The notes under the pieces were generated by a model. That model ran no database searches. It saw nothing but the letters and a program-made list of their open reading frames with translations, and was not told the DNA's origin. A stretch of DNA of 64,000 nt from the NCBI GenBank assembly GCA_000165345.1, contig CM000430.1:96001-160000 (forward strand). Reading direction: 5' to 3'. Shown piece after piece: positions 15,256 to 46,235 of this stretch (position 1 is its first letter; every line of letters starts with the position of its first letter). The translations under genes were made by a program, and so were the position numbers.

Positions 15256-15740
15256 AAGTAACACTGAATTTTGAAATTTACTCCTCTTTAATAATTTTGT
15301 TTTTTCATTTCAATATATATTATTACTTATTTTACTAATAGGCAATATTCTTTCAAAATTTTACTTTTAATATAATACTACACCTTTTCTTCTTCTAATA
15401 TTAATTATATTAAGATTATATATGTATATATTTATTTAAATATACACATATATCATATCATATCATATATATATATATATATATATATGATATGATATAT
15501 ATATAAATAGATATAATATAAACCTCTGCAGCTATATATGCATGTATTCTTTTAAACCTCTATAATAGTAATTTTTGAATCTAATTATATCGCAAATATT
15601 AAAGCCAACCTGTTTTGCAATCCAATCAATTATTTTTTTTTTTACTACATCACGAAAACATTTTTTACTTTTTCCTTAGTATTTATTATATAATCAATTT
15701 TTCATTTTTATAGTTTTTTTTTCTAGTAATACAATGAGGC

Positions 15741-15830
15741 GCCAACTTCCGATACCCTACCATTTTGCCGCTCATGTGTGGCGGCATGGCTAATGCTGAT
15801 TTTGGGGGGTATGGGGGGCTTACCTTGAGA
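15741..15830. promoter_or_regulatory. GC-rich island with GGCGCCAAC / TTTTGCCGC / TGGCGGC E2F-like boxes in the head-to-head spacer between the phosphate-carrier and proteasome beta-3 genes
   Basis: Read from the sequence. It is flanked by long (AT)n tracts at 15455..15500 and 16035..16060. Confidence 0.4.
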
Positions 15831-16035
15831 AATAGCTGAATTTTTTTTGTGTTAATATATAATTTTTAAAAAGAAATTCTGGAAAACATAAAAAAGAGGG
15901 AAAGTTGGATTAAAAAAATTGTTTACAATCTTTAATACGATTGAATTTGCAATAGTATAGCACAGTAAATATTAAATTGGATTGTATTAAAGAATTTTAG
16001 GATATTTATATATTAATATATAAATACAGATTCTC

Positions 16036-16067
<32 letters not shown>

Positions 16068-16298
16068 TTAAAATCTTTAATAAAGTAAAAGAACAAGGCA
16101 ATTAGATTTATTTTGAAATATATCAAGTGTGTATACAAGTTTGAATATATTATTCAGCTAATACTTTTCTCAATATATACAAATTAAATCTCAGTAAGAC
16201 AATAAACAATAACACTACATTGTATAGATCCTGTGGATTTAGTACTGCTTACGATAAAACTAAGTTTTTTCAGTGAGAAATATACTAGATAATCAAAA

Positions 16299-16981
16299 AT
16301 GGTAAGTTATCTACAGATCAAAATTTTCTAAAAAAATGATTAACGCTTTTCCATTAAAATATTTAGTCTATTATGACTTATAATGGTGGTGCCATTTTGG
16401 CAATGAAGGGAAAAGAGTGTGTTGCATTTGCAACAGATATGAGACTTGGATCTAATGGATACAGAACTATAAGTACTGATTTTGATAAAGTTATTAGACC
16501 AAGCTCAAAAACATTGATGGGATTTTCAGGTTTAGCTACTGATATTCACACTCTAACAAACTTAATCAAATTTAAAACAAACTTGTATCATTTAAGGGAA
16601 GAAAGAGAAATTGGTGTTAAAGCACTTAGCCATATGACAGCTTCAATATTATATAGTAAACGTTTCAGTCCATATTTTGTGGAACCAATTGTAGCAGGTC
16701 TTGATAATAATAATGTGCCTTTTATTGCTGGGTATGATCTTATTGGATGCTTATCAGTATGTAGCGAATTTGCAATTTCCGGAACCGCTGATAATCAACT
16801 TTTTGGTATCTGTGAATCATACTATAGACCTGATTTAGAACCTGATGAACTTATGGAAATCGTCTCACAATGTATGCTTTCCGGTATAGATAGAGATGCA
16901 TTTTCTGGATGGGGTTGCAAAGTTTATCTACTTACTCCTGAAAAGCTCGTCACCAAAACTTTAAAATCAAGAATGGATTAA
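16299..16981 (+). CDS. PSMB3: Proteasome subunit beta type-3, two exons: join(16299..16301,16367..16981), 65-nt intron
   Basis: The track ORF (16373..16981) begins MTYNGGAILAMKGKECVAFATD… The open frame continues 6 nt upstream to S-I, preceded by TTTAG. An ATG at 16299 is immediately followed by GTAAGTT. Splicing ATG|GTAAGT…ATTTAG|TCT ATT ATG ACT gives MSIMTYNGGAILAMKGKECVAF, which matches the human PSMB3 N-terminus [22 protein letters not shown]. The C-terminus (…TKTLKSRMD) also matches (…TRTLKARMD). Confidence 0.8.
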
Positions 16982-17981: not shown

Positions 17982-19700
17982 TTAGGTAGCAAGCATTGCT
18001 TTATTTTCGGGAATATTTTCAGAATCTTTGGTTGGTATTGTGAGATTATAAATCTGATAAATTTCTCTGGAATCAATAATTGCCACAGCAGCAAGAGTAC
18101 AGATTGTAGCTACCCCACAAGTAAGCATTAATTTCCAGTAAAGTTTATAAACAATAGAATTATATTCTCTATTTTCATACTTTGCGAGCCTGATAATAGA
18201 ATCAATAACTATAATCAAGAATGATTGAATAACAAGAATCCCAAATTTCCACCCTCCTTGATAAGGTTGAAGAGCTTCTTTACTAGGCCAATAAATAAGC
18301 ATAATTCCATAAATTGAAATAGTTAAAGAAATTATTAGAATTATATTATAAAGAAAGGCCTTAGATGGATGAATAACATTTAGTACCGAAACAAAAATAT
18401 TGATTGGAAGAAGTTGTATCATTAATATATAGCTTACAATGACAATTTTTGGTTGAAAATAAGTTTCTGTACTGGTTGGAATCATAAATGGAGGAACCTT
18501 CCAAACCTGATAAGGGCCTGTTCTCCTTATAGCTGTAACAATTTGTTCTGATCCTCCAAAGTATTCAACAAAAAGATCCCAAAGCCATATATAGCATATA
18601 CTTTGATAAGTAGATTGTATTACATTAAACATTCCATATCCAATTGGAGCAATACACGAGAGGAATTGCATAAGTACAGTAATTGGGAAACTCAAAAATA
18701 TATATAAATATAGACTCACAATTTTTACAGGAAAGACAGTATTTGTAATATTTCTGACCTGTTCTCCACCTTTTCTAAGCTTGCGATATTTTCGAATAGA
18801 AAATCCAATAACCATAATTAAGCTAATAGTAATAAAAATCAGTGCAACTTTAACTTCTTGAAGTCCGTCTTTATTAAATGCTGTTTTAATATCCGGAAAT
18901 TTAGAGTCCAACTCTGATTCTATTAGAGAAAACTTTGTATTTTCTACTGATCTTCTTGAATCTAAGTTAGATCCTATTCCATTTAATTCCACTTGGCTTG
19001 ATACTTGTCCAACTTTACCAACCTGAATTTTTTGTGGAGATATCTTTTGACTATTAGATTTTTGTGAATCCATTTGGGTTTGGGATGGTTTTGAAGAAGG
19101 TGTTGATGAAGATGGCTGAGATGAAGAATTCCGAGGTGGAGGAGCTGGTTGGGATGGAGACTGCTGTGGAGGAGACTGTTTTGGGGGAGACTGCTGCGAA
19201 GAGGACTGCTGCGAAGAGGACTGCTGCGAAGAGGATTGCTGAGGTGGAGGAGCTGGTTGGGATGAAGACTGCTTAGGTGGGGACTGCTGAGAAGAAGGCA
19301 TTGATGGAGCACTGGATGTCTGGCTCTGAGTGTTCCCTCCTTCTTTCGGCACTGAAGGAACTTGTATAACTTCTTTCGAATTTGGAGTTCCAGATCGTTC
19401 GTTTACACTAACTGAAACTATTGGAATATTAATTGGTGCGCTATCCTTGGATAAACCTGGCCCTAGTGTAGGAACTGGAGCAGGAGTAGGTTTAGGTGCA
19501 GGAGTAGGTGCAGGAGCAGGAATGGGTGCAGGAGCAGGAGTAGGCGCAGGCGTAGGAGCAGGAGTAGGCGCAGGAGTAGGCGCAGGAGTAGGCGCAGGAG
19601 TAGGCGCAGGAGCAGGAGCAGGAGCAGCCTGATTTGCGCTCGTGTTTGGAGCGGTGAGAGTTTGAGATGCGTCACTCTTATTGGGAGCCTCTCTAACCAT
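17982..19700 (-). CDS. Membrane protein: N-terminal Pro/Ala/Thr and Ser/Gln repeat region followed by a multi-pass transmembrane C-terminal domain
   Basis: ATG start at 19700. (PAPT)n is encoded by perfect 12-nt tandem repeats GCAGGAGTAGGC (~19478..19630 on the plus strand). (SSQQS)n is encoded by a 15-nt repeat (19187..19236). The C-terminal 280 aa contain at least six hydrophobic helices (…IFITISLIMVIGF…, …YILMIQLLPINIFVSVL…, …ILIISLTISIYGIMLIYW…). Confidence 0.5.
   Translation of the reverse strand: MVREAPNKSDASQTLTAPNTSANQAAPAPAPAPTPAPTPAPTPAPTPAPTPAPTPAPAPIPAPAPTPAPKPTPAPVPTLGPGLSKDSAPINIPIVSVSVNERSGTPNSKEVIQVPSVPKEGGNTQSQTSSAPSMPSSQQSPPKQSSSQPAPPPQQSSSQQSSSQQSSSQQSPPKQSPPQQSPSQPAPPPRNSSSQPSSSTPSSKPSQTQMDSQKSNSQKISPQKIQVGKVGQVSSQVELNGIGSNLDSRRSVENTKFSLIESELDSKFPDIKTAFNKDGLQEVKVALIFITISLIMVIGFSIRKYRKLRKGGEQVRNITNTVFPVKIVSLYLYIFLSFPITVLMQFLSCIAPIGYGMFNVIQSTYQSICYIWLWDLFVEYFGGSEQIVTAIRRTGPYQVWKVPPFMIPTSTETYFQPKIVIVSYILMIQLLPINIFVSVLNVIHPSKAFLYNIILIISLTISIYGIMLIYWPSKEALQPYQGGWKFGILVIQSFLIIVIDSIIRLAKYENREYNSIVYKLYWKLMLTCGVATICTLAAVAIIDSREIYQIYNLTIPTKDSENIPENKAMLAT
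19478..19630 (-). repeat. Perfect in-frame 12-nt tandem repeat array (GCAGGAGTAGGC)n encoding (APTP)n
   Basis: Direct repeats are visible. This is a candidate length-polymorphic minisatellite. Confidence 0.8.
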
Positions 19701-21595: not shown

Positions 21596-22077
21596 ATTTT
21601 TAAATATTATATTTGATAATATATGGGGAATGCCAGCCTAATAAAAAAAACTGATTTATTGAATCAATGAAAGATAGCTGTTGAACAAACTAATTTTATA
21701 ACCGTCAACACTTTTAAATATACTTTAGTTACTGATAAAAAAAAAATTAGTTTGGTGAGATTTACTCATGAACATTTTGTAAAATGTCTTTGTTCCTTGA
21801 ACTCTTTATAAATCATAAGAAATGGTTTGACTTTATTTAAACTTTAAATTCTCATCTGAATATTTCAACTGTCTATGATATCACATCTATCTAATCAATT
21901 AATATTTCCAATACTGAAAAAAATGTTGGCGCCAAATTTCCAATAAATATTTAGAAGATTACGGAAACAAAACAAAAGCAAATCAAAAACAGAATTATTG
22001 CTGTAATTTAATGGTATGATACAATTAAAAGAGTTCTAACTGCTTCTGGAGTTGAATTATAATAGGAGGAGGCTGTG

Positions 22078-25000
22078 ATGTATAGCTTGGAAGCAGACCT
22101 AAAGAACAAAAGTGGGCTAATCAAAAAAAACATGGGAAAAGAAGGTCAATTTGAAGCGAAATTAAGGCCTAGCTGCCCAAATATAGAAGATGAATTAAGA
22201 GCAATTTGTATACCATGCAAGAACAGTAGTCTTAATTATATTAAGGTAATGTGTGAAAAGGCCTTGCTAAGTTTTAGACATTATAGAGATGTAGTATATA
22301 AGACGGATTATGATGAGAATGGTGAAAGATTTAAACAATTTCCTGTTACTGATATATGTTCAGTTTGTAGAGAGGCCATAATAGCATCAACAAAGAACTC
22401 AGATTCAATTCAATTATCAATATTAGGTATGAACTGTATACAACAAATACTAATACCAGGGTTACTAGATACTTCTCACAAAATAACATTATTAGCAGTG
22501 CTTAACGAAGTCACAATTAAAGTTTCTACAACTATTAAAATTAAATCTAAGCAAACTTCAAGTAATTACCATAGTAATCACTCAAGTTCAAACAATGATA
22601 AAGAACAAGTACTGCTCAAAGTTATACAAACTGTACTATTATTTCTGTCTCCAGAAATACTTGAATTTAATGAAGCTATGATCACACTAATTGTTAGCAT
22701 AGTTTCGACTCTATTTAACTTATCAGGCTACTATCAATTAATTCAGATGTCACAACTTGCACTCAGACAGTTAGTAAATATTTCATTAGATTATATTGAT
22801 TCAAACACAGCTATCGAAGAAGATAATAGGGAAGTTTTAGAAGTTGTTCCTCTCTTATTAATTAAAGATATATCAGTAATGATAGATAAGAATATTGTAG
22901 AAAATGTCAAATTAGTTTCAAATAATAAAAGTTCAAAAGATAATTTAACACCACTTTCCTTATTAAAAGGAGGGATAACTATTCCATCGGAAATATGTTT
23001 GGACTTATGGTATGAAATTCTTGATAAGAATATATCTAATAGAAGATCCTTATTGGAAAACAATGAAGACTTAAGAAGCCTAATTCATAATGTACTATTT
23101 CCAACTTTAACAAAATGTATACAAAATGCATGTTCAGATTTAAATCCAAAAATGTCTCAAAATATCCACGAATTTGTTATGTTTGCAAGATTTATTAGAC
23201 TGTTTATAAGGATTTTAGAATTTAACTCGAGTAAGAAACTACAAGGTCCGTTTATTAAGGATTGTATTTGTAATTCCCTAATGAGCTTCATTCAAGCAAT
23301 TTCTGATGGAAATTACTCAAATATTCCAAGCTGGTCACTGCAATGCATTCTTGAAATGTTGAGTGAATTGGTTCAAAACTCAGATATATTGATTATAATT
23401 GGAAATTATAATGTAAAAGTACAAAATAAAAAGAAGGAAGCAGATGAAGAACCAAAAATGACTAACATCCTAGAACTTATTATTTCAACAATCAATCAAA
23501 TTCTAGTTTCTTTAAATGATCAACTTGATATTCTTCATTCAGCTGAAAACACTTTAAATTTATCGGTACCGTCATTTCTAAATGAGAAGATTTCTCTTCC
23601 TTCAATTCTTTTACCTCAACATAACAATACCAGAATTGAATGTGGTTACTTCATTATTAGTTCGTCTAAAAAAGCCTCCGAAAAAAGCATGAGACTAATT
23701 GATATTATTATGGAAGATGATCGTATTTATCATATTTCAAAATATAATTTTGGCGGGAACCTGGCAAATTTGGGGGGCGGCGCACATTTGCATGCAGGCA
23801 ATATGCAAAGTTTGTCAAATTTATCATCAGTTGTATTAATATCTCTAAAACCAATAGAAATATCGCTTCTAGTTTTTGATATTATTTTGAACATTTCAAC
23901 ATGCTTAAATAAAATTTATATGAACCAAATAAATGGTGATAGAGAAAAAACGATAGAATTTGAGAAATTAGTCTTCAATATTTGGGATCAATTTTATATA
24001 TTAATAAAGCAATGCATGGATTACTACCTTTTGAGATATTATGTATATAGAATTATTACTTTCCTATTTATGATCTCAAATTTACCAGAATTTAAAGGGA
24101 AATTGAGCAATATTTTGGAGTTAATTTTTGAAGCATTACAGAAATATTATAAGAATAATCAAATTTTAGAATCTAGAATTCTCAGTGATACAATTATGTT
24201 GGAAAAATTATTCTCAATTTATAAATGTTTTCTATCTATTTCGTATCAATTCAGCGAATGTTTGGATGAAGTTTCTTGGCAATTGTTATTTAGATATATG
24301 GAGTATATAGATCGTATATTGGACATAGGTCTGGGGCCAATGGTAAAATCTAGTGAAATAAAATCTAAATCTACGATAGATGTTGGAGATATAGAAGAAC
24401 TTGATCAAAGCTTATTGAGCCTGAAATCTGAACATTATTCATCAATTGAAAATGGGGAGTCTACTGAGATGAACAATATAAAGGATAAAGACGAAAAGGT
24501 ACGAGACGGACAAATAATTAAAACTCTTATGGCAGAATCAACTATTTTAAGAGCATCTCATCAAGTATTTCTAAAAGATCATATCAAGAATATTTCAGAA
24601 AATACTATGAATTGTGTGATTAAAGGTATTTACAAAGAACTAAGTTATAACATGTACAAAGAAAACCTGGATATTCAAGTTTTTGACTATATGCTTAAAC
24701 AATTGAGCTCTATTATTCAATCAATATACGATAAAATGAGCTATAATCTGTTCATTCCAATATGGAATGACAAAATTATTCCTCTTTTATTGGAAACTAT
24801 CAAGCAAAACAATTATTGTCACACCGGTATTGCATGCGCGCAAAACCAAGATACATGCGATTTGCAAAATTGCATGCACACTAACAATGATTATCCACAT
24901 AAAAAAAATAATGACGTGGAGCTAAATAAAAATAAGAAAATAATCAGAAATAATGTTGAAAATGTTGAAATGTTTAATAGTGTAATGAATTTTTTATCAT

Positions 25001-44103: not shown

Positions 44104-45402
44104 CTAAAATCAAAAAATCATAAATAATATTGTATAAAATCGTTTAATTTCGTATTATTAAAAATAAATATTTTAGTTAATTTGTTATTTAATTATTGAA
44201 TAAATTTATAAAGGCAATAATTCAGAGACTTTCTCAAATTTCTTTATTCAGCTTATCTTTTCCTCCCCTCATTTTTTTGTAGGCTATAATTAGCTTTAAA
44301 AGTCAATTAAATCTGAAGAATTATCACTCATACCATCATGATATAATTTGATGTCAAAATTTTCTAGAAGCATCAACCCCACACCTGTATGTCATAGATA
44401 TTCGCAATTTATTCCCTTCATCTCCCTCCACTCCATCCCTTCTTCTTTGTAACCAAATCATCAAAGTCTCATTATTTGCCTTTCTATTGACTTACCTTTG
44501 ATCCACAAGCTTTTACTGAAGAACTTCCTTTCTTAGTGCAAGCCATTCTTAACTGATAAAAGTTTATCTTTTTTCCTTGTTAATTAAAAATCTATAATTG
44601 GTTTCCCCCAATCCCTTAAATATATTAATACTTGAAATTTAATCGTATTTACTACTTGTTCTGTTTAGTATTCGTGTATTAATTTAAAATTAATTTGCAT
44701 GCAAATAAATACATTTGGCGCCCGACTGTGGGCGCGCATTTTGATCTTCAAGTGGTTAACCACAGTAACATGGCATTAAGTGTATAAATTAAGTTAATAA
44801 GGAAGAATGTGAGCACTAAAAAAAAGATATATTGGGAGAGATGATTTTTTTTTTTTTTTTTAAATCACTCAAGGTCCCAACCCACATTTGAATGTAATAC
44901 AACTCAGTCAAAATAAATCAATAGAGCACTCCTTTCTTTTTTCTTAGATATATTTTTGTGAATTTTTTCATCGACCCTTTGATAGTAAAATTTGTTTCAA
45001 TAACTCTATCATCAAGAGATGTCAACTTTGATCAAATGTAAGATGTAATACAAATGTTTAGTTTTTCGCTATCGTGGCTAATACATAGGAATTGTGAATG
45101 ATAGGCTTTTTAATTAAACGAAAACGTAATATTTAAAACAAGTATAATCAATTTATTAAGAGAGGAACTATTTAAAAGCTGTAACTTTTATCTATTACTA
45201 ACTTGTGGTTGTAGCTTCTTTTGAATAATACCTTCCATCAAAGTTGAAAAATCCAATCATAATTCACTTAAATTAAGCAAAGAAGAAAAGATCTTCGACA
45301 TGTGGAAATATACATATCCGTTACTAATTTAAAGTAAGTGTTTACGCTCGGTGAATTACAAGCTAAACCGGCTGATTATTCCCTACCTCTGATTCATTAC
45401 GC

Positions 45403-45706: not shown

Positions 45707-46235
45707 ATTGGATGAGCTTCCTGTTGATTGCGTTGAATTCTTTGTCTAAAAGAATAAGATGATTAATTTAAATATGAACTCTAAATAAGTTTATCATTTC
45801 GAGTTTAATAAACGAAGAGAACCTCCTTTGAAAATAGAATCTCTCCTATATGGAAATAATCCCAGCTAATATACTCGAAAAGATATAAAGATAAATATTC
45901 AAATGACTTACCATCTCTAATTCAATAAAATCTAAACGTTCTTAAAATTCCAAAGAATAAAATATTAGTTTTACTTTCTTTTAATTTTTCTTTTTTTTCC
46001 CCAATTTATTGAGCTTTATCCAGATATGGTAAAATATCTTTTCCCCTCTTATAACTCTATGTTTTTTTATTTTTGTCAATACACTCAAAAATTGAGTGAG
46101 TCTTGCGGTACCTCTTCAATTAATTAATTATTTCTTTATATGAATATACTATATAGTTATTAAGTTACCTTATTTAAATTTTTTTTATTCAAATACCCCC
46201 ACTATTCACTTTCCCGCTACACTTACCCTGAATTT

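Follow-up and report, generated by a model that had tools for sequence, protein, structure and literature searches.

The proteasome beta-3 gene and its surroundings

The window, a stretch of 64,000 nt of Cryptosporidium parvum DNA, carries on its forward strand a short gene for proteasome subunit beta-3 (PSMB3/Pup3 orthologue) at 16299-16981. The start codon ATG (16299..16301, +), at which the deposited IOWA-ATCC gene also begins exactly, makes up the entire coding part of exon 1 and is directly followed by GTAAGTTAT (GTAAGTT from 16302). A phase-0 spliceosomal intron of 65 nt (16302..16366, +; GTAAGT…TTTAG, the last letters being TATTTAG) was recognized from sequence, homology and conservation. 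It has GT…AG ends and lies exactly between codons 1 and 2, and is called a start-codon intron here. Exon 2 (16367..16981, +) opens with TCT ATT ATG ACT TAT AAT GGT GGT and contains codons 2-205 and the stop codon, which ends at 16981. The spliced coding sequence of 618 nt is translated into 205 aa with the N-terminus MSIMTYNGGAILAM… / MSIMTYNGGAILAMKGKECVAF… (MSIMTYNGG…). This splice junction from 16301 to 16367 had been proposed in an earlier note on the same DNA, and its sequence and coordinates were found to be exact. An internal ATG (16373..16375, +) is codon 4 (Met4); it opens an uninterrupted 202-aa ORF and, as seen from the sequence and the deposited models, serves as the start of the 202-aa models in many records.

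The GC content of the intron is 21.5%, in comparison to 34% in exon 2, and its length and composition fit the means published for C. parvum introns (84-100 nt and 22% GC; PMC4637869). A TTAAC motif is located 23 nt from the 3' splice site. The acceptor TAG (16364-16366) doubles as an in-frame stop directly 5' of Ser2, so that the S-I codons can be translated only through splicing. Unspliced reading from ATG 16299 stops after 10 codons. The only ATGs within 15900-16373, apart from the one at 16373, are 16060 (not followed by GT), 16299 and the intronic 16336, which opens a 15-codon ORF overlapping ATG 16373; no further ATG followed by GT was found in the 400 nt upstream of ATG 16299. The context of ATG 16299 is AAAATGG in the unspliced and AAAATGT in the spliced form, with A at -3, and that of ATG 16373 is weaker, with T at -3. 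The two starts predict different tryptic N-terminal peptides, (Ac-)SIMTYNGGAILAMK for the 205-aa model and (Ac-)TYNGGAILAMK for the 202-aa start.

The 205-aa product matched the Pfam Proteasome family (Ntn-hydrolase, PF00227) with E = 3.1e-42 (144.8 bits against a cut-off of 22.4), residues 6-188 lying on profile positions 2-187 of 189. It aligned with human PSMB3 over the full length (1-205 to 1-205, E = 7.7e-65). Both proteins start with MSIM(T/S)YNGG, with T in C. parvum and S in the human protein; splicing thus restores the conserved PSMB3 N-terminus, as the earlier note had claimed. The beta-3 chains of human, bovine, mouse, yeast, Plasmodium and Leishmania were matched with E = 1e-65 to 1e-48, and the best paralogue other than beta-3 was beta-1 (E = 8e-23). 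An MSI start was present in 63 of the best 120 homologues. Judged by these alignments, the gene is the C. parvum orthologue of proteasome subunit beta-3. Residues 4, 8 and 9 of the mature archaeal beta chain aligned with C. parvum residues 12, 16 and 17, which puts Gly9 of MSIMTYNGG at the position of the Thr1 nucleophile and indicates that the product is the non-catalytic beta-3 subunit. The N-terminal extension of the beta-3 subunit is not processed. Residues 1-8, including the three residues at issue, are the short unprocessed N-terminal extension typical of non-catalytic beta-3.

Some other features were observed in the vicinity. The divergent intergenic region between a mitochondrial-carrier gene and PSMB3 has a GC-rich patch at about 15736-15830 that holds GGCGCC (aggcgccaac), and a palindromic TTGGCGCCAA is found at about 21925-21945, upstream of a large ORF. 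Both are reminiscent of an E2F-like motif, GGCGCC, that has been reported for promoters of Cryptosporidium. A search for a hidden RNA gene in the GC-rich patch gave no Rfam match at gathering thresholds over the whole window, and ARAGORN found no tRNA genes in the whole window. In a 572-aa ORF on the reverse strand at 17982-19700, a multi-pass hydrophobic region comes after long tracts of Pro/Ala/Thr and Ser/Gln repeats. The product of this ORF is annotated with 572, 564, 557 and 555 aa in different assemblies, which suggests repeat-length polymorphism.

It had also been proposed that the layout of the PSMB3 start may recur elsewhere in the genome. A scan run strictly and with relaxed donors (ATG followed by GTAAGT, GTANGN or GTANNN) covered all 22 ORFs of 150 aa or more in the window. 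None other than PSMB3 had the canonical layout, so within the window this proposal did not hold. A look-alike at 22011-22078 (+), in which ATG/GTATGATAC (donor GTATGA; slashes mark splice borders) and 52 nt precede TAATAG/GAG GAG GCT GTG ATG upstream of a 2,338-aa ORF, was rejected. Its donor is weak. The frame of this ORF opens directly after the acceptor TAG. The exact spliced product of 2,343 aa was found in no database, and the plain ATG 22078, or a position close to it, is the start of all nine cluster members, the curated QOY43179.1 among them; the look-alike is probably due to chance. A site at 44336 (-) was rejected as it adds no residues, and a copy of the 9-mer ATGGTAAGT at 45914 (-) was rejected as it has no ORF downstream.

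Conservation of the intron within Cryptosporidium and its removal in a congener

The same splice model was applied to genomic DNA fetched from nine Cryptosporidium genomes, both intestinal and gastric. The arrangement ATG/GTAAGT…AG/TC, with T, C or A as the next letter, was present in all nine, and the product was exactly 205 aa in each of them. The comparison with orthologues that the earlier note had called for therefore came out in favour of its gene model. The introns measured 48 nt in C. felis, 52 nt in C. ryanae, 63 nt in a bovis-clade species, 64, 64, 65 and 65 nt in the parvum group and C. ubiquitum, 128 nt in C. muris and 133 nt in a C. andersoni-type contig, and these lengths span all three mod-3 classes. 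Reading through the intron is impossible in eight of the nine (stops or frameshift), the bovis-clade species being the only one with an intron that is open in frame. The intron diverges faster than exon 2, with an identity to C. parvum of 0.75 versus 0.91 in C. ubiquitum and 0.43 versus 0.75 in C. muris, and among close relatives indels are confined to the intron. A yTrAy motif was found 17-49 nt from the 3' splice site in seven of the introns and ATAAC in the other two, which is only suggestive of branch-point conservation.

The codon for Ser2 varies synonymously across the nine genomes (TCT, TCC, TCA), and the N-termini are MSIMTYNGG, MSIFSYNGG, MSILSYNGG, MSYFTFNGG and MSYSTFNGG. An ATG at codon 4 is missing in five of the nine (C. 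felis, C. ryanae, the bovis-clade species, C. muris and the C. andersoni-type contig), so that the ATG before the intron is the sole start that preserves the N-terminus there.

Two products that fell in one cluster were found to be identical apart from the N-terminus. One of them (P0136; 205 aa, MSILSYNGG…) is encoded on a 1,044-nt Logan contig, L005 (SRR26126307), and the other (P0137; 226 aa, MVSLSQNFNYFIMLKITFVSPQ-SILSYNGG…) on a 1,603-nt ENA contig, L019. The two contigs are colinear over 1,044 nt with one mismatch, except that 63 nt right after the ATG, GTAAGTTTATCG…TCTCCTCAG (GTAAGT…CTCAG), are missing from L005. On this comparison, L019 and the putative transcript contig L005 are a genomic and spliced pair from one bovis-clade Cryptosporidium. 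No papers were found on SRR26126307 or ERZ11466776. Removal of the intron is thus seen as the loss of exactly 63 nt from the putative transcript of the congener, and for C. parvum it is implied by the evidence-based IOWA-ATCC model.

L005 also includes 197 nt before the ATG that are colinear with L019, which means that exon 1 of the congener consists of 5' UTR plus ATG and is at least 200 nt long, not 3 nt. An exon of a few nucleotides with introns on both sides was not found in the congener, as no upstream intron was indicated. The earlier description of a first exon made of the start codon only is accordingly correct for the coding part (3 nt), but not for the physical exon.

A transcript was also sought for C. 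parvum itself, and all ten contigs retrieved for the 202-aa product contained the intron. Several independent Logan contigs break at a (TA)n run, and the C. parvum contigs therefore look genomic. This (TA)n microsatellite is located at 16040-16062, some 240 nt before the PSMB3 ATG, and apparently breaks the assembly of several independent short-read Logan contigs, which end near it at 324-337 nt upstream of ATG 16373. The spliced junction AAAATG/TCTATTATGACTTATAATGGTGGTGC was also searched for as an exact string in JGI metagenome contigs, with no match.

Deposited gene models of PSMB3

Over 3,683 nt, the window showed no difference from C. parvum IOWA-ATCC CP044421.1 (GCA_015245375.1), which has the reverse orientation. 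The gene lies there on the complement strand at about 873287..873969 (coordinates derived from the listed range), and its span of 683 nt corresponds to 16299..16981. With a product of 205 aa, only the model of ATG plus 65-nt intron is possible for this record. QOY43182.1 (CPATCC_000899) and WRK30839.1 are public records of exactly this 205-aa sequence, and the IOWA-ATCC annotation was based on stranded full-length cDNA, RNA-seq and manual curation (10.1101/2021.01.29.428682). Between the model of the earlier note and CPATCC_000899 / QOY43182.1 there is no difference, both having the same 683-nt span and the same 205-aa product. The proposed gene model, with ATG, a 65-nt intron and TCT, is thus equal to the curated one, is conserved throughout the genus and has its equivalent intron removed in a congener. 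The PSMB3 start-codon intron is at the same time not new, as the reference annotation of this genome already carries the correct model. No papers on the gene were found under XP_626290, EAK88932, CPATCC_0008990 or QOY43182.

Other records are inconsistent. Among the matches listed, the ATG exon was missed in 16 of the 25 Cryptosporidium accessions for this gene, which have models of 202 aa or 194 aa. The 202-aa model from ATG 16373 was used in at least 13 accessions among these matches, belonging to C. hominis, C. tyzzeri, C. canis, the chipmunk genotype, one C. meleagridis and several C. parvum records. Models of 194 aa starting with MAMKGK were listed for C. muris, C. andersoni and C. serpentis. 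In addition to these 16 accessions, the Iowa II record XP_626290.1 is a 204-aa 'partial' protein that begins with SIMT…; the annotators of 2004 evidently saw that the ORF extended to Ser2, found no ATG and left the gene 5'-partial. XP_626290.1 and the 202-aa and 194-aa models share the locus and exon 2 with the PSMB3 gene described here and differ by the omitted ATG exon. The correct MSI start was present in the models of C. ubiquitum, one C. meleagridis, C. ryanae, C. bovis, C. xiaoi and C. felis.

Two statements in the earlier note need to be divided in the light of these records. A start at 16373 does remove residues, M-S-I being lost in the 202-aa models, but the reference IOWA-ATCC model already starts at 16299. 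Start codons set apart by an intron were said to be rarely annotated and easy to miss; they are not rare and form a known peak of intron positions (PMC1626468), but for PSMB3 the number of accessions without the ATG exon bears out that the exon is often missed.

In C. muris RN66 (L003, about 1340-1500), an upstream ATG/GTAAGT is followed after 128 nt by TAG/TCA TAT TTT ACT TTT AAT GGA GGT. The C. andersoni-type contig (L017, upstream of 1501) has the same ATG/GTAAGT…TAG/TCA layout with 133 nt, and the spliced product of both is 205 aa, MSYFTFNGGTVMAMKGK…. The 194-aa models of C. muris, C. andersoni and C. serpentis appear to be 11 residues short and to have lost the residue aligned with Thr1. 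The deposited model of C. felis (L004, 1501-2356) has 249 aa, with unrelated sequence after …DRDAFSGW, and a two-exon model on the same DNA gives a colinear product of 205 aa as in other species. The 3' end of this 249-aa model looks mis-spliced.

A start at the Met equivalent to codon 4 was found in 23 of the best 120 homologues, and many of these (ME/MQ-YNGG) were fungal models of 201-202 aa. As the fungus Rhizophagus shares the start-codon intron, many of the Met4-start models may, from their sequences, be missing the same ATG exon and contain the same error.

The practical value of these observations concerns annotation quality, and PSMB3 is a clear-cut example on which to test how gene finders handle start-codon introns. 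The biological weight is small, the corrected model adding M-S-I to a non-catalytic subunit, in an unprocessed extension outside the core fold. For other Cryptosporidium assemblies, the remaining use is as a note on the consistency of annotation.

Main product in C. parvum and comparison with other start-codon introns

We consider the 205-aa spliced form to be the main product in C. parvum, with a probability of about 0.93. Transcription would start upstream of 16299 in C. parvum, and the first exon would consist of 5' UTR plus AUG. The consensus donor GUAAGU right after the AUG and the acceptor UUUAG at 16366 would be used, with an efficiency that we infer for C. parvum, and with 65 nt taken out the AUG would be joined to UCU AUU AUG ACU…. 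A scanning ribosome would then be expected to start at the first AUG, with its A at -3, and produce the 205-aa MSIMTYNGG….

As codon 4 is an ATG in the parvum/hominis/ubiquitum group, a 202-aa product from an unspliced or 5'-short mRNA is physically possible. The two forms could accordingly coexist, most of the product being the spliced 205-aa form and some of it a 202-aa form started at Met4 through intron retention or leaky scanning. Such a mixture is conceivable only in the parvum/hominis/ubiquitum/canis group, where codon 4 is ATG, and we regard it as unlikely. Met4 is kept as ATG in that group and in many other MSIM… eukaryotes, but protein conservation alone accounts for this, because the human protein, which does not start there, has Met at this position too. 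Alternative splicing has been reported in C. parvum expression data in general; in this analysis no second isoform was seen. The first AUG moreover has the better context (A versus T at -3), and a retained intron would add two upstream AUGs, one of them overlapping the Met4 start.

Less probable still is that the intron is not functional at all, the mRNA being unspliced or starting within or after the putative intron and translation starting at ATG 16373 to give the 202-aa MTYNGG…. An unspliced mRNA from upstream would have two earlier AUGs, at 16299 (10 codons) and at 16336 (15 codons, overlapping 16373). The 202-aa ORF is uninterrupted and underlies the 13 or more deposited accessions among the matches listed, but the intron is part of the model curated for this assembly. 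Between the TAG and ATG 16373, the S-I codons agree with the conserved MSI and show synonymous change across species. In the five congeners without a codon-4 ATG, the next in-frame ATG, which is that of the 194-aa models, drops the residue aligned with Thr1 together with the start of the first strand. All the retrieved C. parvum contigs retain the intron, though they look genomic, and splicing is seen in the congener pair of L005, a putative transcript, and L019.

A chance juxtaposition of donor- and acceptor-like strings upstream of an ordinary ORF has a negligible probability: the 9-mer ATGGTAAGT is alone not significantly enriched (2 copies in the window versus 0.48 expected, with 8 of 100 shuffles reaching 2) and the look-alike at 22011 appears spurious, but the layout is kept in nine genomes with 205 aa in all despite turnover of the intron sequence, piroplasms and a fungus have an intron at the same position, and the nine-genome conservation together with the putative spliced transcript of the congener effectively refutes it. 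The donor, the in-frame acceptor, the restored conserved MSI N-terminus and the conservation in nine congeners are in combination far beyond chance, in agreement with the spliced 205-aa form.

An intron at the same position was found outside the genus in three orthologues. Theileria parva (P0112, L020) has ATG/GTTAGG…TTTTAG/GGT GAT ATA with an intron of 123 nt and the product M/GDITSYNGG, Babesia gibsoni (P0095, L021) has ATG/GTAAGT…ATACAG/AGT GGT GTC with 240 nt and M/SGVESYNGG, and the glomeromycote fungus Rhizophagus irregularis (P0008, L022) has ATG/GTAAAT…TTATAG/TCG ATT ATG GAA TAT AAT GGT with 76 nt and M/SIMEYNGG. As in C. parvum, the GT…AG intron comes directly after the ATG and is followed by codon 2. 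Unlike the C. parvum gene with its 65-nt intron, these three genes also have further introns downstream, and the donors of T. parva (GTTAGG) and R. irregularis (GTAAAT) differ from the GTAAGT of C. parvum. The intron position is thus conserved among the orthologues of nine Cryptosporidium genomes, Theileria, Babesia and Rhizophagus, which, from the sequences compared, indicates a position that is either old and ancestral or repeatedly gained.

It is a possible though unlikely reading that the intron is very old, shared by fungi and apicomplexans, and kept in the intron-poor Cryptosporidium for a function. If this were true, the intron might be required for efficient expression, or it might act as a switch, in which a retained intron puts two upstream AUGs before the main ORF and silences translation of the subunit. 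A more practical corollary would be that the annotations of Cryptosporidium and of many fungi may systematically call too few start-codon introns.

In a survey of vertebrates, arthropods, fungi and plants, start-codon introns stood out as a sharp peak in the distribution of intron positions (Nielsen & Wernersson 2006, BMC Genomics 7:256, PMC1626468). Short conserved proteins are enriched for such introns, and distant species often share their positions (PMC1626468). The PSMB3 intron resembles this class in being a phase-0 GT-AG intron after the ATG, in having a short and highly conserved host protein and in its position being conserved across distant lineages. The survey stressed ribosomal proteins and does not mention proteasome subunits or Cryptosporidium (PMC1626468). 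The C. parvum PSMB3 intron is another member of this known class of start-codon introns, in an intron-poor apicomplexan.
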